Under the pieces are notes generated by a model. That model searched no databases, had not been told where the DNA came from, and saw only the letters and a list, made by a program, of their open reading frames with translations. 64,000 nucleotides of DNA, taken from an uncultured Anaerolineaceae bacterium (GTDB lineage Bacteria; Chloroflexota; Anaerolineae; Anaerolineales; E44-bin32). The number at the start of each line of letters is the position of its first letter. Positions within the stretch are counted from its first letter, which is position 1. The translations under genes and the position numbers were made by a program. Where the stretch lies: contig CAYYVY010000009.1 of NCBI GenBank assembly GCA_964475265.1, forward strand, positions 1,002 to 65,001, in the 5' to 3' direction. Shown one piece after another: positions 9,809-56,518 of this stretch.

Positions 9809-10570
9809 ATGAGAAAGGAATCTGGAATGGACACGACGCTCCTGCGACCGCGATGGGTGCGCATCTTTCAGCATGCCTGGCTATTAAATCTCGTCTTGTT
9901 CTTGATCCTGGCGGCTATTCGCTGCTGGGGTTTGTTTGGACCGGCTGGTGTGAGAATGCTGGTCATGCTGAGTTTTTTGTTGATGTGGTTCTTGCCTTTC
10001 ATCTTCTACTCAAATTCCGGACGCAATGCTGCCGGATTGAAGCGCATACAACACACTCGCTGGTTGTTCGGAGGGATGTTCATAGCCGCTCTGGCGTCGT
10101 TGATGATCTTTCTCATCGGCTATGGGTTGTACGGCTTAGGAGAGGACAATTGGTATATCAGTCTGCGAGATTCGTTTGCAATCGATGCCACCTTGAAGCA
10201 GCTGCCGCGCTTGCAGCTGTTTCTGATCTACACACTTCCCGCCGTGCTCTTTAGTCCGGTCGGTGAGGAATTCTTTTTCCGTGGCATGATCCATGCTTCG
10301 GTTGAGAAGAAATTAGGACCACGAGCAGCGACGGCGGTGAATGCGGCGGCCTTCAGTGGTGTGCATCTCTTGCATCACGGAATCAGCTGGACTTCCACAG
10401 GAATACAATTTGCTTGGATCTCGGGCTCGCTGTGGTTTATGATGATGTTGGGATTGAGTTGGTTTCTTACACACTGCCGAGAGAAGAGTGGTTCGATATG
10501 GCCTGCCGTCGCAGCGCATGCCGCGTTCAACCTCGTCACGAACGTGACGATTTTCTGGGTGTTGCTCTAG
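9809..10570 (+). CDS. CPBP (CAAX/Abi-family) intramembrane metalloprotease
   Basis: EEFFFRG, FSGVH and HAAFN motifs with multiple TM helices. Confidence 0.9.
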   Translation: MRKESGMDTTLLRPRWVRIFQHAWLLNLVLFLILAAIRCWGLFGPAGVRMLVMLSFLLMWFLPFIFYSNSGRNAAGLKRIQHTRWLFGGMFIAALASLMIFLIGYGLYGLGEDNWYISLRDSFAIDATLKQLPRLQLFLIYTLPAVLFSPVGEEFFFRGMIHASVEKKLGPRAATAVNAAAFSGVHLLHHGISWTSTGIQFAWISGSLWFMMMLGLSWFLTHCREKSGSIWPAVAAHAAFNLVTNVTIFWVLL

Positions 10571-19370: not shown

Positions 19371-20084
19371 CTAAACCGCTAGAGAGGCATCGCGCCCGAG
19401 TTGGAAAAACCTCCGCCCGAGTTGAACGTACCAGATCACATATCCCGGAAGACACAGGAATAATAAGTATGTCCCGACGACCGGCACGAAGAAGAGGCAC
19501 ACGGCCAGATTGGTGAGGATGCCGACGTAGGCCGTCGCTTTGCTGAAGAGCTTGCTGCGCAGCATCAGCAGCGAGCTGATAAGCAGTGATAGGCCTCCCA
19601 GGAATGTGTTGGCCAGATAGGCCGTGCCATTGAATTGCGCGAGCGTAGCTTCCCCAGCGGCCAAAAATCGGTTTTTCACCAGATCGCTCGTCGCTGCAGC
19701 ATAACCGTCACTCAGGGTGAATAATTCTGCTATGGGTCTCGCCGGCACGATTAATATAGCCGCCAACAATCCCAACACCAAGGCGATCAATGCATACGAT
19801 TCGTTGACCTGCTTCAAGGAAACGTACAGGGTAAGAAACAGCAAGAGCCCGATGAAGTTACTGAGAAACAACAGGAAATCCAGCGACATCAATCCCCCGA
19901 AGCGGTCGCTTTGAAGCGTTGCGTAGATTTCAAGCGTGGAGGCCGATCCCGGTGTGTACGGCCAGATGGCGAAGGCAATGCCTCCCAGGACGATCAGCAA
20001 TTCCAAGATGATGGCCGTAAATCCACCGATTTTATAGATGTCCTTCCAGCGAGGATCTGCGGAATAGGTGTTTTTTGTATTCAT
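19371..20084 (-). CDS. DUF4386-like membrane protein
   Basis: LSDGYAAATSD...FLAAGE; ATG 20084 downstream of AAGGAG. Confidence 0.7.
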   Translation of the reverse strand: MNTKNTYSADPRWKDIYKIGGFTAIILELLIVLGGIAFAIWPYTPGSASTLEIYATLQSDRFGGLMSLDFLLFLSNFIGLLLFLTLYVSLKQVNESYALIALVLGLLAAILIVPARPIAELFTLSDGYAAATSDLVKNRFLAAGEATLAQFNGTAYLANTFLGGLSLLISSLLMLRSKLFSKATAYVGILTNLAVCLFFVPVVGTYLLFLCLPGYVIWYVQLGRRFFQLGRDASLAV

Positions 20085-20152
20085 GGGTATCCATAATCTC
20101 CTTTTAATTTCCATTGATGGTGGATGAATGTATATCTCGTCGGATTGGCTAT

Positions 20153-20851
20153 TTAGATCGGAGCGCTTCTCCCCAGTTGGAACAACCTGCGTGCGATCAT
20201 TATGTTCCACACGAAAAGCAGCATGGCCGAGAAGGCTGAAACATACAGGCCCACGACCGGGAGAAACAAGCCGAAATCGAGGATGCTCGAAACAATACGC
20301 ACGCAAGCCGTGGTCCGATTGAAGATCGTGCTGCGCAGCATGACGATCGAGAGGATCAAGCCCGTAATCGAACCCAACAGGTAACTGACCATATAGCTGG
20401 TGCCGTGGAATATCGCCAGAAGACCCTCTCCCGCCGCCAGGTACAGGGTCTGCTGCGCATCGGTTGTGGCCGTCGCGTATTGGCCGCTGAGATGCAGCAT
20501 TTCTAAAGCCGGTCTAGCCGAGAAAAGCGCCGCGGATCCCGCGATAGTGAGAGCGATGTACAGCGCCATTAACGCGGGATCGGTCCGCCGCAGGGCGACG
20601 TACAAGGCCAGCGACAGGGGTATCGCCAGCACTCCATAGACGATGAACAACACTTCGAAGGACAGTAATCCTAATAATGCGTTGTCTTGAAACAGCTCGA
20701 ACCAGCCCAGCGCCGTGCTCGGAGGCGGCTCGATGCTGAAGACGGCGATCTGTATGGGGACGATGAAGATCATTAATACAACCGCAATTGCGGCGATCCT
20801 GTAAAGTGATTGCCATTGAAAGTTACCGCTTTCTTGATTTGATTTCATCAT
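20153..20851 (-). CDS. DUF4386-like membrane protein
   Basis: WFELFQDN, LSGQYATATTDAQQTLYLAAGE. Confidence 0.7.
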   Translation of the reverse strand: MMKSNQESGNFQWQSLYRIAAIAVVLMIFIVPIQIAVFSIEPPPSTALGWFELFQDNALLGLLSFEVLFIVYGVLAIPLSLALYVALRRTDPALMALYIALTIAGSAALFSARPALEMLHLSGQYATATTDAQQTLYLAAGEGLLAIFHGTSYMVSYLLGSITGLILSIVMLRSTIFNRTTACVRIVSSILDFGLFLPVVGLYVSAFSAMLLFVWNIMIARRLFQLGRSAPI

Positions 20852-21075
20852 TGTTTCTCCCTTTCGTGTTCGCAATTCACGGACAAGAGAACGAACCCGC
20901 GTCCGTGCAGGTAGCGCAGCAATCCGATGACGCCGGATTGATCGGTGTGGACTTCCAATCTTGTGCTTTGGGCATCCAGGCACTCGACTTTCACTCGCAG
21001 CGGGCTGGCGCCGCCGATCTCTTGCGAATCGATTCGTCCACGAAGCAGGATGAAATAAGTTTGCACATCATTCAT
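20848..21075 (-). CDS. Small ACT-like hypothetical protein following a MalT-type regulator
   Basis: YFILLRGRID...TDQSGVIGLLRYLHGRGFVLLSV, similar to 29606..29863. Confidence 0.65.
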   Translation of the reverse strand: MNDVQTYFILLRGRIDSQEIGGASPLRVKVECLDAQSTRLEVHTDQSGVIGLLRYLHGRGFVLLSVNCEHEREKQ

Positions 21076-21258: not shown

Positions 21259-23994
21259 TCAGAGCAGACCCAGTTGACGCGCCCGTGCGACCGCCTGTGT
21301 GCGGCTGTTTACCCTCAGCTTTCCATAGATGTTGCTGCTGTGCTTTTTTACCGTATGCAGTGTAATCACGAGGCGATCGGCGATTTCGTGATTGGACAAA
21401 CCTTCGCCGATCAATGCCAGGACTTCCTTTTCGCGCTCACTCAGCGTGTCGATCAAGGCGGACTCTGCGGACTTGGGTATGGCTGCATCTTCAGCGACCA
21501 GCTTCTCCGGGAAAGCGGCTACGATGCTCTCGACGTACTCCGGGCTGGCGTTTCCGATTTCGCCCCGCGCCAACAGGGTCGTCAATGTATCGAGCAGTGG
21601 GGTCCCTTCATCGATGAAGATGCTGATAAATCCTTCCGGCTCGGCTAATTCCAACGCCTGGATCGTGTCCGCAGCGCTTTCTTCCGTATCACCGATAACG
21701 GCATGCATTTGGCCGCGAAGTAGAAGCAACTCCAACCCGATGAGAAGATACTGACGCTGCAAAGCTTCTTCGACGATGAGGTCCGCCAAGGCAATGCCGG
21801 CCTTTAAGTTTGCCATCTCTTGCTTGGTCCGCGCTCGGTACAGCAGGATTCGAAAAGCGCTGGTATAGAGCGCCCCGGTGGGCGGGGTGATGATCTGGTA
21901 GGGGGCTTGCTCTGGGTGGTCGAATCCATCCTGGAAAGAAAAGCCCAGCGGTGTGAGGATCGCTTCCGCTCTGGCAAGGCGGTTGCGGGCCAGGTGGATG
22001 CGGATTTCCTGGGCTAATGCTTCCTCACGCACTGCCGTTGGTGCCTCAGATCGCATCATGCCTGCGACCTTCTGGATCTCTCGATCGGCTGCTTCCAAAT
22101 CGCCCTCAAGTTGATGTAGTCGGGAGAGGACCACGCCGTAATACACTTCCGCATCGCTGTAGCCGCTCAACTCGCTCACGCGGATAGAGCGCTGAAAATA
22201 TTCGAGCGCCTTTTCCAATTGGTGCCATTGGTAATGAACCACACCAAGTTCACCGTATACAGCGGTGCTGATCGGGGGCAAAGATCCCGAACGCTCCATG
22301 CGTTCGAGTCCACGAGAGACGATCTCGAAGGTGAAATGCAGCTGGCCGTGCTGGATGGCCATCAGTGCCAGACCGGAAATGCCCAGCAGTTCGTAAACCG
22401 AATTGCCCACCGCCTCGCCGTAATGGATGATCCGTTGGAATGCTTCCAGAGCGTTGTCGTATTCGTCGAGTTGTTGGTAGACGCTTGCCAGTCCCAAATC
22501 GATCATGCTGCGTACGCGTCCGTCATCCTGGGAGACGAGCGCAAAAGCTTGTTGCGCCAATTTCAAGCCCTCTGCCGGCTTTCCCTGTGCGTTGAGCAGC
22601 ATAACCTGCAGCGCGAGCCACTTTGCCTTGAGAATGGGATTATCATCCCCGATTTTGCCTTCGGCGTGCATTTCCTGCAATCGATGCAGATACGGAGCCG
22701 CCTGCGAATACGCACCGCGTTGAATGTACATCCAGGCGAAGGCCAGGTTGGCTTCAGCACTTTGCTCGCACCAGGCGTGGGGGATCGCTTGCAGCCAACC
22801 GTCCACCGTTTTGATGTGCCATTTCATGAGCATATCCATGGCGTGACTTTCGATCAGGCGCACGGCCGCAGCATAATCTCGAGCAGCCAGGGCATGCTCG
22901 ATGGCTTCGCTGGGCATGTCCATTTGGACGAACCATTGGCTGGCGCGTTGGTGAAGCTCGGCTACGGAATCCTGAGCGAAGTCCTGTAAACGATCGCGCA
23001 GCAGATCGGTAAACAAGGCATGATAGCGATACCAGCGCTGCTGGTCGTCCAACGGGATCAGGAACAAATTGGCGCTGTATAAGTCTTCCAGCAACGAGCG
23101 ACTGTCACTGCGTCCCGTAATTGCATCGCACAAATCCCCGTTCAAGCGATCAAGAATCGAAGTTTGCACCAAAAAACGCAGGATATCTGGCGCTTGCCGG
23201 CTGAGGACTTCCTCGCTCAAGTAACTCAGGATGAAGCGGTGGCTGCCGCTCAGGTTGGTGATGAATTGGGAGGGGTTCTCTCTGTCGTGGATCGACAAAC
23301 CGGCGAGGTGCAGCCCGGCGATCCAGCCTTCCGTGCGATCGACCAGCTTGCGGATGTCGCCTATCGAGAGGGAAAGCCCCATTTGCTGATTGAGGAATTT
23401 TTCAGCTTCCTTCTCAGTAAAACGCAGATCGCCCGCTCGAATCTCGCTCAGTTTATCACTGGCGCGCAAGCGAGCCAGCGGCAGTGAGGGATCTTCCCGG
23501 GTGATCAAAACGAGATGCAGCGGCAATGGAAGATTCGAAATCAAGTCTTCCAAAACATGCAGGATGTATTCATCTTGGATCACCTGGAAATCGTCCAACA
23601 CCAGCAGGAACCGTTTCTCGACGCTGAGGATGTCACCGATAAGGGTCGTGCTGAAGACCTCGACGGGGGGGAGTTGTCCTGCGCGCAGCACCCCTTCGAT
23701 CTCGCTGCCGATACCGCCCTCGATTTGCTGTAAAGCAGCGATCAGATAGGAAAAAAAGCGCCCGGGGTCGTCATCCGCCGCATCGAGGGAGAGCCAGGTC
23801 ATCGGCCAGCGAACCAGCGAATCGATCCATTCGCTGACGCAGATGGTCTTACCGAATCCGGCCGGTGCCGAGACAAGTACGATTTGATGTCCGCATTCCA
23901 ACCCTTCGGTCAGTTTCCGAATCAGGGATGTACGTTGGACCCACTTCCCGGGAAGGGATGGGCGATTCAGTTTCGTGGTTAAGAGACCCGACAT
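21259..23994 (-). CDS. MalT-family STAND ATPase / LuxR HTH regulator
   Basis: APAGFGKT, LVLDDFQ, TEGWIAGL, TPR-like sensor region, C-terminal LSEREKEVL...NSRTQAV. Confidence 0.93.
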   Translation of the reverse strand: MSGLLTTKLNRPSLPGKWVQRTSLIRKLTEGLECGHQIVLVSAPAGFGKTICVSEWIDSLVRWPMTWLSLDAADDDPGRFFSYLIAALQQIEGGIGSEIEGVLRAGQLPPVEVFSTTLIGDILSVEKRFLLVLDDFQVIQDEYILHVLEDLISNLPLPLHLVLITREDPSLPLARLRASDKLSEIRAGDLRFTEKEAEKFLNQQMGLSLSIGDIRKLVDRTEGWIAGLHLAGLSIHDRENPSQFITNLSGSHRFILSYLSEEVLSRQAPDILRFLVQTSILDRLNGDLCDAITGRSDSRSLLEDLYSANLFLIPLDDQQRWYRYHALFTDLLRDRLQDFAQDSVAELHQRASQWFVQMDMPSEAIEHALAARDYAAAVRLIESHAMDMLMKWHIKTVDGWLQAIPHAWCEQSAEANLAFAWMYIQRGAYSQAAPYLHRLQEMHAEGKIGDDNPILKAKWLALQVMLLNAQGKPAEGLKLAQQAFALVSQDDGRVRSMIDLGLASVYQQLDEYDNALEAFQRIIHYGEAVGNSVYELLGISGLALMAIQHGQLHFTFEIVSRGLERMERSGSLPPISTAVYGELGVVHYQWHQLEKALEYFQRSIRVSELSGYSDAEVYYGVVLSRLHQLEGDLEAADREIQKVAGMMRSEAPTAVREEALAQEIRIHLARNRLARAEAILTPLGFSFQDGFDHPEQAPYQIITPPTGALYTSAFRILLYRARTKQEMANLKAGIALADLIVEEALQRQYLLIGLELLLLRGQMHAVIGDTEESAADTIQALELAEPEGFISIFIDEGTPLLDTLTTLLARGEIGNASPEYVESIVAAFPEKLVAEDAAIPKSAESALIDTLSEREKEVLALIGEGLSNHEIADRLVITLHTVKKHSSNIYGKLRVNSRTQAVARARQLGLL

Positions 23995-24061: not shown

Positions 24062-24787
24062 TCATGCTTGTGTACTCTCCCGGGCAAGCCGGAAGAGGCC
24101 TCGACTGATCAGCACCCACCAAATCAGCCAGCTCAATCCGCCGACGGGTATGAGTATCTCCGACAGCGTTGCGTTAATGACCAGGCTGAGACGACCTACG
24201 AGGGTGATGAAGAATCCAAGTATGCCTACATACGCCGTCGCCTTGTCGAACGTCCCGTTGTGTAAAATTACGATTGAGATGATCAGGCTGGCGATTGCAA
24301 TGAAGAAGTAGCCTATCGTGTCGATCGTCGCCCGTACGGGAGCGCCTAACGTTTGTCCCACGGCTAATAATTGATCTCTTTGGACTTGAGTCGTCGCTGC
24401 TGCGTATTCATCGCTGAGTTTTAGCATCGTGGATCCCATATCGGCACGCGAGGCGACGAATACGGTGATGCCCAGGAGGGCGAAGAACACGGCAATCAAC
24501 ATGATCGATTCGTTCGCTCGTCTCAACGCTATATAGAGCGCCAGAAACATGACCCCCAGCAAGGCGATGGAAATCACGTCGAAGACGTTGAGCGCCAGCA
24601 AACCGAGTAGCTTGTTGTCCTCGAACAAGGAGAACCATTCGAGCGCTTGGGTCGGGTATTCGTCACCGACCAGAATTACGCCGATGACCTCGATTACGTA
24701 TGTGGCCAACGTAATCAGCGGGGCAATCACACCGATCCGATACAGCAGATTCCATGGATTGGTTGTTGTTTGGTTATATTTAGGCAT
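24062..24787 (-). CDS. DUF4386-like membrane protein
   Basis: EWFSLFEDN, LSDEYAAATTQVQRDQLLAVG. Confidence 0.7.
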   Translation of the reverse strand: MPKYNQTTTNPWNLLYRIGVIAPLITLATYVIEVIGVILVGDEYPTQALEWFSLFEDNKLLGLLALNVFDVISIALLGVMFLALYIALRRANESIMLIAVFFALLGITVFVASRADMGSTMLKLSDEYAAATTQVQRDQLLAVGQTLGAPVRATIDTIGYFFIAIASLIISIVILHNGTFDKATAYVGILGFFITLVGRLSLVINATLSEILIPVGGLSWLIWWVLISRGLFRLARESTQA

Positions 24788-25079
24788 GTTGTGTTTCTCC
24801 GTCTTGGAGTGCTGTTATTTCATTGCTCGTTTACTTTTGTATATATAAGTATGGGGGAGAAGTATGTTCTTATCAAGATTAACCCGGGCGGATAGTGAAG
24901 TGGGTAGAATGATTGAGTCTATAAAAATTTGGGGAGAATTCAAAATCCGCTCGATGAAAATTCGGTATAAAGAACAACAGCGGCCCAAACGACTAATTTA
25001 TGTATTTCGAGTTGTCGGGGGTACTCAGCACAAGCGAATCAAAATAACCTGAAGCTGGAGAGCTTTAAGCGGCAGTTAA

Positions 25080-26195
25080 CTAACGAGTCATCTCATCAAT
25101 CTCGCGGGTTCGCAGGCCGATGAGCACACATACCGCGATGCCGACGAGGACCGCGATCATACCTGCTGGCGCGATCGTGACTTCCATGGGTCCTGTGGCG
25201 CAGGGTGCTACGAGTCCAAAGTTGTGCGCGATGGCTCCCCCAAAAAACATACCCAGGATGAAGTAGGCTGCATCCCCACTGCCTTCCCCTGTGAGGATGA
25301 GCTGCCGTGTCGGGCAGCCACCTGCCAGCGTGGAGGCGATCCCGACCAGGATCATACCCAGGAAATTCCACAGATGTTGGCTTTGAACGACGGGTTGATT
25401 GGCAAAGCCAATATTAATTTGTCCCAAGAATGTATTCGTCACGAATGCAGCGATTAATAGACTGAGAGCCCCGCTAAGCAGGTGGGTGTTTCGTATGAGC
25501 ACAACATCACGAATCGATCCCATGATACAGAAGCGCGTGCGTTGGCCCAAAAATCCGATCGACAATCCTGCAAGCAAAGAAAGCCACACAGCGGCGTGCA
25601 TCGATCCTGAACCCACATAGCTGGAAAAGATGGGACCATCTTCCCCGACGCGTGGTTGAAAGATCAGCAAGAGCAATAGGCCGATCGTTCCGATCGGAAC
25701 GAACCAGCTGAAAAATGCCGGCAGTATCCTGGTGCGGCCAGGTGTGTAACCGGCTTTAAGTAACCGCACGCCGATGCCAACGCCCACTCCAAATCCTGCG
25801 ATGCCTACAAGTGCGTTCAGATCGCCGCCGGCAAGCCGGAGTAATGCTCTCAATGGACAGCCCTGGAAGGCTAAGGCGCCGATGGCTGTGAAAGAACCCA
25901 GAATCAAAGGTACGAGTGAAAGTGTTGTTGCCCGGTTGCGATGCTCCGAAAACAGCTTGGCGGTCAGATAGGCACCCAACACGATGCCTATGATCTCGGG
26001 ACGGATGAACTGCACGGCACCTTCACGGTGAAAGCCCAACGCGCCACTGATGTCGCGTAAGAAGCCTGCGATGCAAATGCCCATGTTGGGTGGATTACCG
26101 GCGTAGACCAAAGCAGCGGCCATAACCCCGATAAAAACTCCGGCGAAGACGACTCCCCGCTGGGCGGCAAAGAAGGCTGTTAGCTTATCTCGCAT
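25080..26195 (-). CDS. yedE: YedE/YeeE-family putative selenium/sulfur transporter (selenium-metabolism YedE type)
   Basis: GNPPNMGICIAGFLRD, FIRPEI, GCPLRALLRLAGGD, QRTRFCIMG, GGCPTRQLIL; ATG 26195 after GAGG. Confidence 0.88.
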   Translation of the reverse strand: MRDKLTAFFAAQRGVVFAGVFIGVMAAALVYAGNPPNMGICIAGFLRDISGALGFHREGAVQFIRPEIIGIVLGAYLTAKLFSEHRNRATTLSLVPLILGSFTAIGALAFQGCPLRALLRLAGGDLNALVGIAGFGVGVGIGVRLLKAGYTPGRTRILPAFFSWFVPIGTIGLLLLLIFQPRVGEDGPIFSSYVGSGSMHAAVWLSLLAGLSIGFLGQRTRFCIMGSIRDVVLIRNTHLLSGALSLLIAAFVTNTFLGQINIGFANQPVVQSQHLWNFLGMILVGIASTLAGGCPTRQLILTGEGSGDAAYFILGMFFGGAIAHNFGLVAPCATGPMEVTIAPAGMIAVLVGIAVCVLIGLRTREIDEMTR

Positions 26196-26218
26196 CGTCA
26201 ATTCCTCTGGAAGTCGGT

Positions 26219-26443
26219 TTAAATGTCGAATAATCCCTGGGTTTCGATCCGCAGGGATTGGACCAAGGATTCGGCTCGATCTCGGTCGCTTTGGGCAATA
26301 CGGACGCAAACCCCACAATCCGAGCTCAGGTGACGAGGCACGGGAATTAGTTTCGAGGCGACCCCGGTTTTTTGCAGGATTTTTTCTAACTTCAGGGCAT
26401 GACTTGTCGAATAGACCAGAATCACTGTGTACGCTGCGCTCAC
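26219..26443 (-). CDS. DUF3343 putative Se/S carrier protein
   Basis: STSHALKLEK...LIPVPRHLSSDCG. Confidence 0.85.
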   Translation of the reverse strand: MSAAYTVILVYSTSHALKLEKILQKTGVASKLIPVPRHLSSDCGVCVRIAQSDRDRAESLVQSLRIETQGLFDI

Positions 26444-27657
26444 TGCCTATCCTTTGCCATGATGCGTTCTATATTGAAATGAAGCCTTCCGTTTTTCTGA
26501 CTTAAATGTTGGACGGCAGCAACAGCAGCGCTTACATCTTCGTGGGTATTCATTGCGCCCAGACCGAAACGGACGGTGCCTGTCGGGAATGTGCCCAACG
26601 TCTTGTGCGCCACCGGCGCACAGTGCAGCCCCACACGGCAAAGGATGCCGAATTCTTCATCCAGACGAAGGCCAACGTCGGAGGGGGGCAGATCGGCAAT
26701 ATTGAATGAGATCGTCGACGTTTGGAATGCTGCTTGTGCCCCGCCATACAGCGTGACACCTGGAATATCAAGCAGACCATCCAACAGCGTCTGAGTTAAG
26801 CTCATCTCGTGCGCACGAATGTTTCCCACGCCTTGCTGCAGCACCCATTGGATTCCGGCTTGCAATCCTGCAATGCCAACGCCGTTGGGCGTTCCGCTTT
26901 CACCCAAATCGGGTAAGAAGCCGGGATGTTCTTCCAGTTCTGAGCGGCTGCCGGTGCCACCCCGCTTGAGCGGTACAAAGCGATCGAGATCGACGCGCTC
27001 ACCGACAACCAGGCCGCCGGTTCCCATGGGACCGAAAAGTGATTTATGTCCCGTAAACGCCAACAAGTCGATCATGTCGGCTTGCATGTCGATGGGATGG
27101 GCACCTGCGGTTTGAGCGGCATCAACCAACAGGAGCAGCTCACGTTGGCGGGCGATTTTGCCAAGATCTGTAATGGGCAGAATCGTGCCGGCGACGTTTG
27201 AGGCGTGATTGATGGCCAGCATGACGGTATTGGGGCGAATCGCTGCGGCAACATCGGCTGGTTGCAGAAAGCCTTCTGGAGAGCACTTCACAACGGTTAA
27301 CTCGAGTCCGATTTGTTCCAGAGCCCGAAGTGGACGCATCATCGAATTGTGTTCCATGCTTGTGGTGATCACATGGTCGCCCGGTCGTAGATAGCCACAT
27401 AGCGCCAAATTCAGGGCCTCCGTTACGTTGGCGCCGAAAACCACTTTCAGAGGATCGTCGACATTAAATAACTGTGCGACGCGTTCACGCGTTTCGAAGA
27501 CCACGCGCGCGGCCTGCACGGCCATACGGTGACCGGATCTTCCCGGATTGGCGCCTAGCTCCGTCATGAAATGAACCATGGCCTGGCTCACCGCGATCGG
27601 CTTGGGCCAGGACGTCGCTGCATTGTCCAGGTAAATCAGGTGCTCTTTAATTTGCAT
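26440..27657 (-). CDS. PLP-dependent cysteine desulfurase / selenocysteine lyase family protein
   Basis: YLDNAATSWPKP, NPGRSGH, DAAQTAG, FTGHKS (PLP Lys), RVGLHCAP (catalytic Cys). Confidence 0.92.
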   Translation of the reverse strand: MQIKEHLIYLDNAATSWPKPIAVSQAMVHFMTELGANPGRSGHRMAVQAARVVFETRERVAQLFNVDDPLKVVFGANVTEALNLALCGYLRPGDHVITTSMEHNSMMRPLRALEQIGLELTVVKCSPEGFLQPADVAAAIRPNTVMLAINHASNVAGTILPITDLGKIARQRELLLLVDAAQTAGAHPIDMQADMIDLLAFTGHKSLFGPMGTGGLVVGERVDLDRFVPLKRGGTGSRSELEEHPGFLPDLGESGTPNGVGIAGLQAGIQWVLQQGVGNIRAHEMSLTQTLLDGLLDIPGVTLYGGAQAAFQTSTISFNIADLPPSDVGLRLDEEFGILCRVGLHCAPVAHKTLGTFPTGTVRFGLGAMNTHEDVSAAVAAVQHLSQKNGRLHFNIERIMAKDRQ

Positions 27658-27667
27658 GCTTTTCCGC

Positions 27668-28600
27668 CTACTCGATCTCAACTTTACGCTGCAGTAAGAA
27701 AACTTCGGATTCCATTAAATCTGTAATCGTTAGATACGATGCGTCGTGCGAGAGATATAACGATACGAACATGGGAGATTCGATAACGTCTTCACGAACC
27801 CAATTCAAGCCGCCATCTTTGGTGTGAAAGGCAACGACTTTACTTTGTGAATTTCCTGTAACATGCAGCACCGCCAGGCCATGTTGGTCGTCCAGAAAGC
27901 GCAGCCCCGCTGAGGCGGTTTCCATGTTGGAAACCTGTACAGCTCCGATGGGTAAAATCCGTTGTTGCCAGCTTTCCCCCCCGTTTTGTGTGACGAACAA
28001 CTGCCCCTCGGTATCGAGAACGGCGCCGTTCATTGGGGTCCTCAGCGATATCGCCAGTATCTCGGATAAATCCTGCGGCAAGCTCAGCAATTGCCAACTG
28101 CTGCCGCCGTTGGTGGTTATGCCTAAGCGGTCCGTCGTGGCGACCCAGCCTGTGGTGGCATCGAGAAAACTTAGAAATTTGCAATAGTTGCCAAACTCAC
28201 TGACGGCTTCCCAAGACTGGCCACCGTCGATACTTCGGCCAATGGGTCCCAAACTGCATTGCCAGGCCACTTGTGGGTCGACCACGTCGAGTCCGAAGAG
28301 GCACTCGATGCTGCTGTCTGACGGGGTCCAGGATTGACTACCGTCAAGCGTTACGTGTGCTTTTCCTTCGTCCGCTGGACCACCTGTGATCCCGAAATCG
28401 GAATTTAGATAGGCGGCGACGCGTATCGCATGATCTATCGAGGCTTTGCGAAGAAACACCCAGGAGTCGGACAGCGGCATATATTGCATGTCACTTGCTT
28501 GGTCCGCTTGGGGAGGGACAATCTCTTTGGGCGTACAGGCGACTATTGCGAGCAATAGTAAAAATATAAGTGGAAAGCTGGGTGAATTGAGTCTCGTCAT
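27668..28600 (-). CDS. YCF48/BNR-repeat beta-propeller lipoprotein (Cys form)
   Basis: IVAC lipobox; repeated T/S-x-D/N-GG-x-S/T-W Asp-box motifs; ECLFGLD...WQC. Confidence 0.85.
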   Translation of the reverse strand: MTRLNSPSFPLIFLLLLAIVACTPKEIVPPQADQASDMQYMPLSDSWVFLRKASIDHAIRVAAYLNSDFGITGGPADEGKAHVTLDGSQSWTPSDSSIECLFGLDVVDPQVAWQCSLGPIGRSIDGGQSWEAVSEFGNYCKFLSFLDATTGWVATTDRLGITTNGGSSWQLLSLPQDLSEILAISLRTPMNGAVLDTEGQLFVTQNGGESWQQRILPIGAVQVSNMETASAGLRFLDDQHGLAVLHVTGNSQSKVVAFHTKDGGLNWVREDVIESPMFVSLYLSHDASYLTITDLMESEVFLLQRKVEIE

Positions 28601-28633: not shown

Positions 28634-29581
28634 TCAAGTGTCGTTATGTCGAAGGACGGTGATCTTTCCTGCGACCGACTGGATCGTTAGATATTTCCCG
28701 TCTCTTGACAGATACGTGGAGCCAAGAGTGGCTGGCACGATTTCTTCCTGCCAGGTTTGACCGCCATCCGTAGTCGTCAGCGCGACGACCTTGCTGTCTC
28801 CTCCTCCAAAGAGGTCGACGATCACGATGCCGTCATCGGCATCCAGGAAACGAACGGCACCGAAGGTAACGGAATTATTCGCCTCTAGTTTCATCTCACC
28901 GTATTTGCCCAGCGGCAGTGAAATCTTGTTCCAGCTCCGGCCTCCGTCGGCCGTGATGTACAAGTCTCCGCCCTTGTATAGGAGATATCCATCCATCCTT
29001 GTCCGGAGTGAGATTGTGACGATGTTGTAGACAAAGATGTCCTCAGGCAGTGGGAATTCCGTCCATGTTTCACCTGCGTCGGTACTTAGCTGTGAGTCTG
29101 GTGTTTGGTTTGGAGAGAGATACCAGACTGTATCCGCATCGACCGCACTCACTCGACAGAATGGTATTCCGGCGCCGTCAGCATCGCCTTCCCAGGTAAG
29201 GCCGCCGTCCCGCGTCAGGCGAATCACCGAAGCGTTGCATTGCCAGATCGTGTTGACATCAACGATGTCCAGACCGAACAGTCAACCCGAACTTGTATCG
29301 GAAGCCACCCAGGTCTGACCACCGTCGTGGGTACTGTGAAAAACACCTGCCGCATCGGCACCTCCGGTAAAACCCAGTTCGTCGTCATAGAAAGCGGCTA
29401 TCCTTACGTTTTGTTCCACGCGATCCAACTCCAGCACGACCTCCCATGGCTCGACAGGCTCTGGGGTGAGCGTTTCCGTCGGAACAACCACTGGAACTTC
29501 GCTGATCGGCGATACGCCGTTCATCGTGCATGCCGCCAGCAATGCGGTGAATAGTAAATGTAGCGCGAATATTTTCTTCAT
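28634..29581 (-). CDS. Putative selenoprotein: YCF48/BNR-repeat lipoprotein with in-frame UGA (Sec100), 315 aa
   Basis: AGGGAG RBS, ATG 29581, LLAAC lipobox; frame continues through TGA 29284-29282 as SSG-U-LFGLDIVDVNTIWQC, aligning with SIE-C-LFGLDVVDPQVAWQC of the adjacent paralog. Confidence 0.8.
29246..29275 (-). promoter_or_regulatory. Candidate bacterial SECIS element
   Basis: mRNA after the UGA reads CUGUUC-GGUC-UG-GACAUC-GUU-GAUGUC-AA-CA-C-GAUC; G-initiated apical loop starts after an 18-nt spacer from the UGA. Confidence 0.6.
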
Positions 29582-29605
29582 CGATTGTTCTCCCTTCATT
29601 GGTAA

Positions 29606-29863
29606 TCACATTGACGAAGTTGCATCCATGCGTCTCACCAGGATTAAATTCAAACCCAGGTCACGAATCCGGGACAAAATTCCGTGCAGCGCGGCTTGAT
29701 CAGGGATGTCGCCATAGAAAGTGGTGATGATCTTCCCATCATGTTCTTCGATGTTGATCTGCATACCCTCAAACCAAGAAGACCAGTTGTGATCCAATCG
29801 TCCCTGGACTTTAATTTCATACACCGCCAAGGAATCCGTATATTTTTTCGTGGAGTTTTGCAT
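29606..29863 (-). CDS. Small ACT-like hypothetical protein following a MalT-type regulator
   Basis: YEIKVQGRLDHNWSSWFEG...PDQAALHGILSRIRDLGLNLI. Confidence 0.75.
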   Translation of the reverse strand: MQNSTKKYTDSLAVYEIKVQGRLDHNWSSWFEGMQINIEEHDGKIITTFYGDIPDQAALHGILSRIRDLGLNLILVRRMDATSSM

Positions 29864-29909
29864 CCTCAACCCTCATAGGAGCACAAAAACCGCTGGCCTG
29901 GATGGACTT

Positions 29910-29976: not shown

Positions 29977-32727
29977 TTATTCGAGAATCCCCAATTCGCG
30001 CGCACGTGCAACGGCCTGTGTGCGCCGCGAAACGTCAAGCTTGCGAAAGATGTGCGAGATGTGTGTTTTCACGGTGTTCACAGAAATATAGAGTCGTTCG
30101 GAGATTTCCGGATTTGAAATCCCTGTGGCAATTAATTGTAGAATCTCCAATTCGCGCGGTCTCAAAGGCTCGATCAGCTGATCCTGCTTTCTGGTTTGTG
30201 ACCGGGGTGACTCTATTTCCTGTTTCCAAAGGTTGGATATCGTACACAAGCGCGCAATATACTCGGGGTAACTACTGCTTGGCTTTACTCGCTGCAGCAA
30301 TCGAAGCAACGGTTCGCCTTCACCGATGAAAACGTGGGTGAATTCTTGGGGCATGGCTATGGCGAGAGCCTGCTCCAGGTTTTCAGCTGCGCGTTGATTT
30401 TGACCATGGGCCTCGTACGCAAGCGCTTGCAGGATCATGATTTCGATTTGCGAAGGAAGATCGTTGCGGTGCTCAGCGATTGCGCCTTGACTCATCAAGA
30501 TGGCTTGCAACTGTTTCAGGCTGGCCACGGGTTGTGAATAATTTCGTTGGTGCTGGGCGAGAATCACTCTCGCCAGCGCGAGGACTTCGGTGTTGATATC
30601 GTTGGAATCCACATCCAGGATCTCTCCTCGAGCTTTTGCCCACTGAAACGCGTTATCGAGATAGTCTGGTTCTGTCTGCGCCTGCCGAAGCCATAATCGT
30701 ACCCGTTGTGTGCTGATGTTTAGCGTTTCGTTCGGATGCAATTGCTCGGCTTTGTGCAATGATTCCAGAGCCGCTGTGATCTGCCCCCAAATTTGCTGGA
30801 TGGCCGCGAGTTCGAGCAATCCCTGACATTGATGGACAGGTGCGGAGGTCAATTCAAGCAAGCTCAATCCGTGCTGAATTGAATCAATAGCCTCATGAAG
30901 ATATCCCTGCTCGAGTAAAGTGCCGCCAAAGACGATTTCGATCGTGCCGGCGTAAGGGATTAACCGATCCCCCACTTTGTCTCTGATCGTTTGTAATCCC
31001 CTGTTACATGTCTCAACCGCGTCGTGCAAATCTCCCCGCGCACGGGCGATATCCGCAAGCGCAGTAATGCCGGCTGAGGCGTTAAACAGGTCGTTGCTGG
31101 CGATACCGGTATGCCAGGCTTCTTTGAATGATTCACGAGCAGCATCGATGTCCCCGTTGCGCTGGTAGCCTTTCCCCAAGTTGAAGGCCAGCGCGCTGCG
31201 GAACAGGGTTTCATCTTCTGGAAGACGCTCGATCGCTTGAACTGTGAAGTCGATCGCTTTTTGGATGTCCTCTCCGCGTAGTTGGAGCAAGTAAGCCCGA
31301 ACTTTGTCGATGTAGTGCTTGGCAACAGGGGTCACCGGGGGGCTCATTTTCTGCGCTGTGCTGTCTGCCTCCAATGCCGTTTCCGCGAACTGCAGCCACT
31401 TCTCGACCAGGGCCGCAGATTCGGGGGTGTCGAGTGTATTCAGATGATCCAACAAGATGCAGCTGGCGAAGACAGCACTAAGTAATGAGTGGGAACGCAA
31501 TACTTCTTCAGGTAGCGATTTCAGCCACTTGTACACCAGTACGGTTTCGCTGCGGTAGAAGATGCTTAATACATGTCGTTTGATGATCTCTGCGGCGTAG
31601 TCAGGTTGCTGCGCGGTCAATGCATATTTTATCGCTTCATCGATTAATCCCTCTTGCTCGAACCACTGGCTGGCTCGAATGCGGATTGAATTGATCCGCT
31701 CCTGATCATGCAACAAACAAAGCCGATGATAGAGCAAATCGGCGAACAAGTGATGATAACGGAACCAGAATCGACGATTGTCCAGGGGAATGATGAAGAG
31801 ATTGATCCGCTCCAATCCGTCCAATATGTCTTGGCTGTCGTCGCGATTTGTGAGTACATCGCAAAGCGGCGCGCAAATTCTTTCTAAAGCCGAGGTTTGA
31901 TAAAGAAAATCCTGAATATCAGCTGGTTGGTCTTGAAGGATTTCTTCAACCAAATAGTCCATCACATAACGGTCGTCGCCTGCAAAGGCGTCGATAAATT
32001 CCTGTTTCTCTTTACTGTCCAATGCTTGCAGCGAGAGTGCAGCCAGGTGTAAGCCAACGGCCCACCCTTCCGTCCGTTTCTCCAATGCAGCGACATCATC
32101 GACCGGTAGATCCAGGTTGGAAATCGTGTTGAGGAACTCGTGGACTTCTTCAACTGTAAACCTGAGATCAGCAACGCGGATTTCGGTCAACTCGGCGCGA
32201 GCTCGCCAACGTGCAACTGTGAGTGGAGGATTTTCGCGCGTTGCGATCACGATGTGGATATCTGGAGGCAGGTGATCGATAAAGTAATCCAAACCCTGGT
32301 GGATGGTTTCCTCTTGTAAGAGGTGGTAATCATCGAGCACCAGTATGAAGGGGGAAGAGATGGAGGAGAGATCGTTGATTAAGACGGTCAGCAGGGATTC
32401 CAGGGGTGGAGGTTGCGATAACTGCAGCGAAGCTTTCACCCCTTCTCCGAGCGATGGATGCAGTGTTTGTATGGCTGCGATCAAATACTGCCAGAACCTG
32501 CCGGCATCGTTGTCTTGTGTATCTAAAGAAAGCCAGGCGGCAGAACCGTCTCGCTGCTGCAGCCAAGCACTCACCAAGGTTGTCTTTCCGAAACCAGCGG
32601 GTGCGCAGATCAGCGTAATTCGTCCTGCCAGGCCGGCGTCCAACTGCTCGATCAGCCGTTCGCGCGGCACGAGGTCCAGTCGCGTTTGAGGGATATATAG
32701 CTTTGTCGTCAGCAACGAGGTCGACAT
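29977..32727 (-). CDS. MalT-family STAND ATPase / LuxR HTH regulator
   Basis: CAPAGFGKT, LVLDDYH, TEGWAVGL, FRYHHLF, C-terminal HTH LRPRELEIL...RRTQAV. Confidence 0.93.
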   Translation of the reverse strand: MSTSLLTTKLYIPQTRLDLVPRERLIEQLDAGLAGRITLICAPAGFGKTTLVSAWLQQRDGSAAWLSLDTQDNDAGRFWQYLIAAIQTLHPSLGEGVKASLQLSQPPPLESLLTVLINDLSSISSPFILVLDDYHLLQEETIHQGLDYFIDHLPPDIHIVIATRENPPLTVARWRARAELTEIRVADLRFTVEEVHEFLNTISNLDLPVDDVAALEKRTEGWAVGLHLAALSLQALDSKEKQEFIDAFAGDDRYVMDYLVEEILQDQPADIQDFLYQTSALERICAPLCDVLTNRDDSQDILDGLERINLFIIPLDNRRFWFRYHHLFADLLYHRLCLLHDQERINSIRIRASQWFEQEGLIDEAIKYALTAQQPDYAAEIIKRHVLSIFYRSETVLVYKWLKSLPEEVLRSHSLLSAVFASCILLDHLNTLDTPESAALVEKWLQFAETALEADSTAQKMSPPVTPVAKHYIDKVRAYLLQLRGEDIQKAIDFTVQAIERLPEDETLFRSALAFNLGKGYQRNGDIDAARESFKEAWHTGIASNDLFNASAGITALADIARARGDLHDAVETCNRGLQTIRDKVGDRLIPYAGTIEIVFGGTLLEQGYLHEAIDSIQHGLSLLELTSAPVHQCQGLLELAAIQQIWGQITAALESLHKAEQLHPNETLNISTQRVRLWLRQAQTEPDYLDNAFQWAKARGEILDVDSNDINTEVLALARVILAQHQRNYSQPVASLKQLQAILMSQGAIAEHRNDLPSQIEIMILQALAYEAHGQNQRAAENLEQALAIAMPQEFTHVFIGEGEPLLRLLQRVKPSSSYPEYIARLCTISNLWKQEIESPRSQTRKQDQLIEPLRPRELEILQLIATGISNPEISERLYISVNTVKTHISHIFRKLDVSRRTQAVARARELGILE

Positions 32728-55513: not shown

Positions 55514-56518
55514 ATGAAAATTGATCAAAAACGGATCGCGATGTGTTTTGTACTCTCAGCGTTGTTGCTAACGGGATGCGCAAAGCCAAACGCACAAGCG
55601 ACATCGGTACCGCAAGAAGACAAAGGGCAGTCCAACGAAGTCCCGGCACCCGAAGAGGTCATCCAAGACAGCCAGCCGCAGGTTTCTTGGGAAATGGTCT
55701 ATGAACGCGAAGCCAGGCAGCCCATTCGTATGGCCGGATTCTTGAATGAAACTTTTGGTATTAGCGGAGGTGCAACCGGGGAAGGAAGAGCGCATTACTC
55801 CAGCGATGGCGGAGAGACTTGGACCAAGTCGGAAGGCAGCGGAGGATGCATTTACGGCATCGAGATTGTCGACGAGCAAACCGTCTGGGTCTGTGGCCGC
55901 AATACGGGCGCATCGTTCTCCACGCCAGGTGGGGTACGCTTGAGTCTGGATGGCGGCCAAACCTGGGAAGAGCCGGCGGATTTCCGCGTTACCCCAGGAT
56001 TCTGCCCGTTGAGCTTCCTTGACGATCAAGTCGGTTGGTTTGTTTCTGCCGACAAACTCTACGCAACCTTCGATGGGGGTGCAGCGGTCGCGGATATTGC
56101 ACTTCCTGAAGAGGGTATGCGCGTTGCAGCGATATCTCTGCTTTCCGAGGCCGAAGGTTACGTGATGGATTACGACGGTGTCATTCATATCACACAGGAC
56201 GGAGGGGTAACCTGGGAACCTTTGGAAATCGACTTGCAACACTTCTCTGGCATGAGCCCCTATCAAGCCGGTGATGTCGGTACAGCAGCCATGCGTTTCG
56301 TCGACAGGGATAAGGCCGTGATTGTCATGAGTTTGCTGGGAGAGAATAAAGAAAGCGCATTGGTGGCGTTCCGTACCGTGGATGGTGGGCAAACCTGGAC
56401 CGATGAAACGCTTCTGGAGAAGCTGGGTACGCCCTTCATTTCACCCGATGGCATGTATGTTACCGTCCATGATATTTTTAGTAACATGCTGCGCGTATTC
56501 CGCAACTTGGGCGATTGA
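55514..56518 (+). CDS. YCF48/BNR-repeat lipoprotein (third paralog, Cys form)
   Basis: LTGC lipobox; DGGxTW repeats; GGCIYGIEIVDEQTVWVC. Confidence 0.85.
   Translation: MKIDQKRIAMCFVLSALLLTGCAKPNAQATSVPQEDKGQSNEVPAPEEVIQDSQPQVSWEMVYEREARQPIRMAGFLNETFGISGGATGEGRAHYSSDGGETWTKSEGSGGCIYGIEIVDEQTVWVCGRNTGASFSTPGGVRLSLDGGQTWEEPADFRVTPGFCPLSFLDDQVGWFVSADKLYATFDGGAAVADIALPEEGMRVAAISLLSEAEGYVMDYDGVIHITQDGGVTWEPLEIDLQHFSGMSPYQAGDVGTAAMRFVDRDKAVIVMSLLGENKESALVAFRTVDGGQTWTDETLLEKLGTPFISPDGMYVTVHDIFSNMLRVFRNLGD

Follow-up and report, generated by a model that had tools for sequence, protein, structure and literature searches.

A gene for a predicted beta-propeller lipoprotein, interrupted by a single in-frame TGA, was found on the minus strand of a 64,000-nucleotide (nt) stretch of DNA from an uncultured Anaerolineaceae bacterium (GenBank assembly GCA_964475265.1, contig CAYYVY010000009.1, forward-strand positions 1,002 to 65,001). 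The whole stretch is referred to here as the window, and coordinates are counted from its first letter. The gene, at positions 28634 to 29581, is very probably an intact selenoprotein gene in which UGA-100 specifies selenocysteine (Sec). UGA-100 would be recoded to Sec by the SelB/tRNA-Sec system of the host, directed by a Sec insertion sequence (SECIS) stem-loop within the coding sequence that has a 6-bp stem and a GUU loop 18 nt past the UGA. The product would be an exported lipoprotein of about 32 kDa, tethered to the membrane on its outer face, with Sec standing in for a conserved lone Cys directly ahead of the second blade's innermost strand.

Gene frame and product

The features of the gene are as follows.

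28634..29581, minus strand: candidate selenoprotein gene, 315 codons in a single frame, for a BNR/Asp-box (Ycf48-like) beta-propeller lipoprotein with predicted Sec at codon 100
29282..29284, minus strand: in-frame UGA predicted to be decoded as selenocysteine (U100); column kept in G000, G004, G002, and L046
29528..29581, minus strand: lipoprotein signal peptide with lipobox L-A-A-C at residues 15 to 18 (Cys18), from motif inspection
29255..29269, minus strand: SECIS-like hairpin core with a 6-bp stem (29269-29264 / 29260-29255) and GUU loop (29263-29261)
29215..29281, minus strand: suppressed synonymous change, codons 101 to 122, with low values continuing to about codon 140
28636-28634, minus strand: terminal stop TGA of the gene

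Translation of 28634-29581 (-) with TGA read as U gives 315 residues, and the sole internal TGA is codon 100 (29284-29282). This confirms the proposal of the first-pass annotation of the window that one frame is broken by this TGA alone. The peptide context that it quoted around the TGA is exact, and the two paralogs that it aligned there, at 27668-28600 (310 amino acids [aa]) and 55514-56518 (334 aa), have Cys in the aligned column. Under translation table 11 the same frame is read as two pieces, one of 105 aa (29282-29599) and one of 197 aa (28634-29227). The ATG at 29581 is preceded by a GGAG-type ribosome-binding site, and Cys18 of the lipobox is invariant in 14/14 rows of alignment A1 (14 rows; a second alignment, A2, has 3 rows).

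The Sec propeller (P0001) matched the Pfam families BNR (PF02012; 43.9 bits) and PSII_BNR (PF14870; 33.6 bits), both with a threshold of 27, and its match to Sortilin-Vps10 (36.2 bits) was also above the cut-off. No selenoprotein model of NCBIfam release 20.0 matched the protein; its NCBIfam matches were Ycf48, F510_1955, and BamB only, each below its own cut-off. An AlphaFold2 model based on 84 sequences had a mean predicted local distance difference test (pLDDT) score of 91 and a predicted template modeling (pTM) score of 0.84. The best Foldseek matches in the PDB were the Ycf48 chains 5ojr and 2xbg (E values of 4e-11 to 5e-9, template modeling [TM] scores of 0.46 to 0.51, and identities of 16 to 17%), followed by GH74 and further propellers. 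Identity with Ycf48 proper, the photosystem II assembly factor, was rejected, with the equivalog model NF010237 scoring 40.8 bits against a cut-off of 326 and a TM score of about 0.5. The relationship of the Sec propeller to Ycf48 is distant and not one of orthology.

Conservation of the UGA and coding constraint

The TGA column is occupied by Cys in 10 of 11 local paralogs and homologs and in 62 of the 79 aligned distant representatives. A search of 41 related genomes recovered orthologs with exactly one TGA, in the same column, from two other species of the genus (G004, 81% identity; G002, 79% identity). A 62%-identical ortholog on a metagenome contig (L046) again has TGA in that column, and loci L044 and L045 duplicate the G002 form. 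The codon is thus not private to one genome, a concern that the first-pass annotation had raised, and further divergent metagenome contigs, described below, carry it as well. The four distinct TGA orthologs (host genome G000, G004, G002, and L046) all belong to one Anaerolineales genus and are free of other lesions.

The pairwise ratios of nonsynonymous to synonymous substitution rates (dN/dS) among these orthologs range from 0.11 to 0.29 on the 5' side of the TGA and from 0.06 to 0.17 on the 3' side, and dS against L046 is saturated (about 1.7 to 3.1). Purifying dN/dS values together with saturated dS past the TGA indicate that the region downstream of the stop is translated and under selection. 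In the family-wide search, which covered 98/98 genomes, the propeller family occurred in this genus only (4/98), and three of these four genomes have the TGA form.

Sec machinery of the host

The host genome (G000) is 3.64 Mb in size and 96% complete, and the window lies on its contig C9. The first-pass annotation made its proposal depend on selA, selB, and selC in the host, and tRNA-Sec, SelA, SelB, and SelD are all present. The tRNA-Sec was detected with Rfam (74.3 bits) and with ARAGORN (tRNA-SeC, anticodon TCA); SelA scored 454 bits, the SelB wing domain 70.5 bits, and SelD, which has an in-frame TGA of its own, 353 bits. SelA is also encoded in all five other genomes of the genus, including G002 and G004. 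Two genes elsewhere in the genome served as internal SECIS references.

G000 C10:28684-29607, minus strand: SelD gene with one in-frame TGA and a stem-loop
G000 C21:7204-9222, minus strand: formate dehydrogenase alpha subunit (FdhA) gene with one in-frame TGA and a stem-loop

TGA is used as an ordinary stop in this genome too, including as the terminator of the Sec propeller gene itself.

SECIS-like hairpin downstream of the UGA

The SECIS-like hairpin postulated in the first-pass annotation was located at 29269-29255. The UGA is followed by 12 nt, a 6-bp stem, the GUU loop, and the complementary arm, and the loop begins 18 nt past the UGA. The hairpin is present in 4/4 distinct TGA forms and at 0/44 other homolog sites (0/19 with a Cys codon and 0/25 other regex-matched sites). 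In L046 a synonymous CTG-to-CTT change extends the stem to 8 bp. The gene holds only one such hairpin, and none follows the terminal TGA. Among all TGA trinucleotides of the genome, 728 of 111277 (0.65%) pass the hairpin criteria.

The hairpin zone is also marked by codon usage. Within codons 96 to 122, only 2 of the 24 conserved degenerate codons differ among the three close species, versus 83 of 207 elsewhere (Fisher p = 0.0015), and dS is 0.06 to 0.13 in the hairpin zone versus 0.47 to 0.68 farther downstream.

The candidate element resembles those of FdhA and SelD in the same genome: in all three the stem has at least 6 bp, and the loop opens with G and carries U at the second or third position. 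The apical-loop G and U are SelB contacts in the elements of Escherichia coli and Moorella. The FdhA element has a 6-bp stem and a GGUCU loop that, like that of the candidate, starts 18 nt past the UGA, whereas the candidate loop has 3 nt (5 nt with the closing C-G pair open). The SelD element has a G-GUU-C loop and so shares GUU with the candidate but, unlike it, forms its hairpin 32 nt downstream.

TGA forms in metagenomes and protein records

The window occurs mainly in salt-marsh metagenome runs. Contigs of runs X2, X3, X12, and X18 were compared with the gene at 80% likeness. A spike in depth at 29242-29273 was found to consist of extra contigs that match only 29236/29240 to 29269/29272, with 0 to 4 differences in 30 to 34 nt, and then diverge. 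The loose ends of these contigs, translated by hand, have TGA at exactly 29284-29282, and their flanks are different but homologous and in frame: ..SSGS-U-CYTF.. in X12 and X18 and ..SSGG-U-LYTF.. in X3. The downstream end in X12 runs in frame into the next Asp-box. The X12 and X18 variants, with loose ends at 29269, have a U-C vicinal selenol-thiol pair that the window gene lacks.

In a protein library of 1.84 billion sequences, from which the best 150 of 8973 matches were taken, five representatives of 205 to 212 aa start 4 to 7 residues past the TGA column. D-V occurs at reference positions 108-109 in 5/5 of these short representatives versus 1/78 full-length ones (p = 2e-7, which overstates the difference because the sequences are related). 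D-V is the protein imprint of the hairpin stem, and the extended motif D-I-V-D-V could be used to locate more members among truncated records.

Decoding of UGA-100

The alternative that best survives next to Sec insertion is a split gene, in which the TGA is a true stop and two polypeptides, a 99-aa lipoprotein and a product of about 197 aa with the GTG of codon 119 as its start, might together form a propeller. Gene callers give exactly these products (P0152/P0153 and P0002), and the GTG at codon 119 is conserved. The N-terminal piece is recorded separately at 99 to 103 aa (P0153, whose sources include NCBI, and P0154; the N-terminal fragment search gave 3 proteins from 4 candidates), as is the 197-aa C-terminal piece (P0002). 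These separate public records mean that the gene is split in public annotation, as the first-pass annotation expected of standard pipelines. As a description of the biology, a split gene is nevertheless very improbable. Codons 101 to 118, which lie between the stop and the GTG, show protein-level conservation (dN = 0 in three species) and align with the family; the downstream piece would have no signal peptide, whereas the upstream one is exported; the stop falls precisely in the column of the conserved Cys; and the hairpin that follows matches the genome's own SECIS elements.

Leaky read-through of UGA is known in bacteria, and a near-cognate or suppressor tRNA, or a reassigned code, might let UGA-100 be read as Trp, Cys, or Gly. 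Such decoding is even less credible than a split gene, since the terminator of the gene itself is a TGA without a hairpin, SelD and FdhA of the same genome use TGA at known Sec positions, a dedicated tRNA-Sec with anticodon TCA is present, and a UGA in a Cys column with a stem-loop after it is the hallmark of Sec. The least likely alternative is a pseudogene created by a TGC-to-TGA nonsense mutation or a sequencing error, a loss that three Cys paralogs in the genome could cover in a family where stray in-frame stops are known. Against it, four distinct sequences with saturated synonymous sites and low downstream dN/dS retain the TGA, as do independent metagenome runs; no further lesions are found; and orthologs at 62 to 81% identity are not one recent clone.

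Two stray stops in the family lie at positions other than the Sec column and were rejected as further Sec forms. In G616 (L081, C17:41926-42846) TGA replaces the Trp of the last Asp-box of a Cys-form homolog, and this was taken as an unrelated lesion or artefact. In G525 (L088, C20:37035-37931) a TAG lies near the N terminus of a Cys-form homolog. Each is probably a pseudogene or a sequencing error. A short frame in G608 is caused by a contig end and is not a true TGA form.

Several observations weigh against decoding of UGA-100 as Sec. The full-length DNA evidence comes from a single genus. No additional TGA form was found in 98/98 genomes of the family, and sampling of the order, class, and phylum at 401 genomes apiece yielded no further TGA at the column (the class sample was searched with profile A1, with 5 candidates scored per genome, and the phylum sample with query P0006). 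The evidence for wider Sec forms is suggestive, since the loose ends of the metagenome contigs are 30-letter consensus strings, and the short representatives are protein records, not DNA. The hairpin criteria were fixed after the candidate, FdhA, and SelD elements had been seen. As a whole, the 76-nt region has no more stability than expected from dinucleotide shuffles (z = -0.01), 92 of 200 of which fold equally well. The hairpin core is invariant and therefore gives no covariation signal; alifold found a double change in 1 of 22 pairs, outside the core. No Rfam family matched; the best hit, to a viral frameshift element, scored 23 bits and is put down to chance. No RNA run on record contains the window.

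Position of residue 100 in the propeller

In the AlphaFold2 model, each Asp-box lies between the third and fourth strands of its blade, which places U100 directly before the innermost strand (residues 101 to 106) of the second blade. By the secondary structure of the model, C115 is at the end of the following strand, and C142 is just before the innermost strand of the third blade. In propellers, loops of this kind would lie on the face where ligands are usually bound. U100 would accordingly be expected on the propeller face beside the central channel; the spatial positions of U100, C115, and C142 are taken from secondary structure only.

Among the 79 full-length representatives, the presence of C115 and that of a Cys near position 142 are coupled (40 have both, 25 neither, and 14 one only; p = 1.6e-8), and Cys100 varies independently of both (p = 1.0). 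From this pattern C115 and C142 are read as a structural disulfide and residue 100 as a free functional Cys or Sec. A disulfide or selenylsulfide between residues 100 and 115 was judged unlikely because Cys100 is independent of C115 and C142, which covary. The strand register of the model would also disfavour such a bond, with residue 115 opposite about residue 103.

Gene neighborhood

The minus-strand order is a MalT-type regulator, an 87-aa open reading frame (ORF), the Sec propeller, a Cys propeller, a TIGR01977 enzyme, DUF3343, YedE, DUF4386, and a second MalT-type regulator. The neighbors with assigned features are listed below.

29977..32727, minus strand: MalT/LuxR-type regulator (TPR_MalT 157.8 bits, GerE 62.1 bits)
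29606..29869, minus strand: conserved 87-aa ORF directly upstream of the Sec gene, 77 to 82% identical in orthologous loci
27668..28600, minus strand: Cys-form paralog, 310 aa, 34% identical, with Cys in the Sec column, 33 nt downstream of the Sec gene
26440..27681, minus strand: pyridoxal phosphate (PLP) enzyme of the cysteine desulfurase/selenocysteine lyase family, with a 14-nt overlap with the end of the Cys paralog
26219..26443, minus strand: DUF3343, putative Se/S carrier, 74 aa (PF11823, E = 1.4e-20, 73 bits), overlapping the PLP enzyme gene by 4 nt
25080..26318, minus strand: YedE-family putative selenium transporter (TIGR04112, 396.7 bits, cut-off 200)
21259-23994, minus strand: second MalT/LuxR-type regulator (NF003420 MalT, 407.6 bits, below the 537-bit cut-off)

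The selenium-metabolism neighbors named in the first-pass annotation were recovered by family models. The PLP enzyme matched TIGR01977 with 454.5 bits (cut-off 377) and the SclA model NF040779 with 372.9 bits, under its cut-off of 525; YedE matched TIGR04112, and the PF11823 carrier can be added to them. This DUF3343 gene, which lies between the Sec-lyase-family gene and YedE, was absent from the first-pass account and falls below the 150-aa size of its ORF list. The real start of YedE is probably near 26195, as ortholog homology begins at residue 35.

The cluster order is kept in G002 (L043) and in L044, and also in G004, L045, and L046 as far as the loci reach. YedE is encoded in G002 and G004, which have the Sec propeller, and was not found in G001, G003, and G005 (each about 93% complete), which are also without the Sec propeller. 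Since the Sec and Cys propellers are just 34% identical, they are old paralogs, perhaps partners, and not selenium-regulated substitutes for each other.

The 87-aa ORF matched no Pfam or NCBIfam family. A 39%-identical copy (L106, about 10124-10315) precedes a Cys-form propeller behind a MalT-type regulator in G616, a genome of another family of the order, and from this recurrence the ORF may be a fixed partner of the propeller family. The two MalT/LuxR regulators, of about 910 aa each and 33% identical to each other, flank the whole cluster, an arrangement kept in G002 (L043). Genes for DUF4386 membrane proteins lie downstream of YedE on the minus strand at 24062-24787, 19371-20306, and 20153-20983, and synteny in G002 and L044 extends to the one closest to YedE.

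Possible functions

The selenol of U100 would probably act as a free nucleophile or as a ligand for a chalcogen or soft metal, outside the membrane. Two kinds of role can be considered. In the first, the protein would have a surface redox or soft-metal function typical of its family (thiol or selenol oxidoreduction, or cell-surface binding of Hg, Cu, or polysulfide), and the selenium genes would only supply selenium or be unrelated; this has close to an even chance. Cys homologs elsewhere are not beside selenium genes (18/18 regions), the MalT-orf87-BNR order occurs without selenium genes in G616, and the vicinal Sec-Cys pair of some metagenome variants is like CU motifs, which Haft links to metal binding (bioRxiv 10.1101/2022.07.06.499078). 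Against such a general role stand the 14-nt overlap between the Cys paralog and the Sec-lyase-family gene and the history of the cluster, which genomes of the genus have gained or lost as one block.

The leading specific role, proposed tentatively, is the extracytoplasmic capture or redox processing of selenium that is passed to YedE. It is proposed because the Sec propeller forms a tight cluster with the Cys paralog, the Sec-lyase-family enzyme, the DUF3343 carrier, and YedE. This YedE-linked capture is no more likely than a general surface redox or soft-metal role. A narrower version, which is unlikely, holds that the YedE selenium pathway has its missing extracellular receptor in the Sec propeller, perhaps paired with the Cys paralog. 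The surface selenol would then trap environmental selenium as an Se-Se or Se-S adduct in sulfidic sediment, and the selenium would be relayed to YedE and then, through DUF3343 and the Sec-lyase-family enzyme, to SelD. If true, this would be a selenoprotein for selenium acquisition, and no earlier capture protein specific to selenium would have been described in bacteria.

The regions around Cys homologs in other genomes tell against a role in selenium uptake. None of 18/18 such regions (about 10 to 18 kb) has a YedE, Sec-lyase, or DUF3343 gene, and the MalT-orf87-BNR order occurs outside the genus in G616 only. The absence of selenium genes beside the Cys homologs indicates that the linkage is local to the genus and that the basic function of the family is probably different.

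Relation to known proteins and selenoproteins

The product shares Asp-box repeats and the beta-propeller fold with Ycf48/HCF136 and BNR propellers (PF14870 and PF02012). It differs from Ycf48 in that the host is a non-photosynthetic member of the Anaerolineales and the product is a lipoprotein with a conserved Cys or Sec. A literature search for selenocysteine together with Ycf48 gave nothing, and a conserved Cys/Sec was not found described for Ycf48.

The closest parallels among selenoproteins are SaoB and SaoX, the SAO substrate-binding proteins, which are likewise extracytoplasmic selenoproteins with signal peptides or lipoprotein anchors, have Sec or Cys in a putative ligand pocket, are usually split in databases, and are linked to a transporter (10.1101/2022.07.06.499078). 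As that preprint presents them, they differ in having an ABC substrate-binding fold and not a propeller, CU or UxP motifs, and another gene neighborhood. Lin et al. (2015; PMC5322559) described YedE as adjoining Sec lyase and proposed that YedE transports selenium and that DUF3343 is a Se/S chaperone. The three genes downstream of the propellers belong to the families of this module, but a propeller or lipoprotein partner was not found in it, the word "lipoprotein" occurring 0 times in the main text of that paper. No SirA/YedF, the usual partner in the YedE module, was found among ORFs of at least 45 aa in 24700-26500. Sec and Cys isoforms of one family also coexist in a single genome in methanogens such as Methanococcus maripaludis (PMC11097638); in comparison with the pairs described there, the Sec and Cys propellers are adjacent, co-oriented, and only 34% identical.

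The prediction of the first-pass annotation that the family is uncatalogued holds for the sources compared. No NCBIfam selenoprotein model covers it, and Table 1 of a 2026 review of prokaryotic selenoproteomes (PMC13188914), which lists 119 families or subfamilies, has no BNR, Asp-box, propeller, or Ycf48 entry. The main text of deep-Sep does not mention BNR or propeller terms, its supplementary lists being outside the scope of this comparison. Literature searches on selenoprotein BNR, Sec beta-propeller lipoproteins, and Anaerolineae selenoproteins yielded nothing relevant. New bacterial selenoprotein families are found regularly. The assignment to a new selenoprotein family is well supported, with recoding by the mechanism that is standard in bacteria, and the family may sit unnoticed in a large supplementary candidate list.

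A thioredoxin-like fold is found in the majority of characterized selenoproteins, and a redox role is assumed for most known families (PMC13188914). A surface Asp-box propeller with a lone Sec would extend the structural and cellular range of Sec use, and its recognition would correct a recurring public annotation error in which the gene is split in two. It would also give YedE, whose role in selenium transport has been hypothetical since 2015 (PMC5322559), a concrete candidate partner.

Further Cys-form paralogs

A protein search with the adjacent Cys paralog returned BNR/Ycf48 labels again and nothing more. Two further Cys-form paralogs are encoded in the genome, one in the window at 55514-56518 on the plus strand (334 aa) and one at G000:C19:38153-39037, which brings the propeller copies in the genome to four. 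The neighbors of these further paralogs, which have no selenium link, encode an acyltransferase, a homoserine dehydrogenase, and a PfkB kinase.

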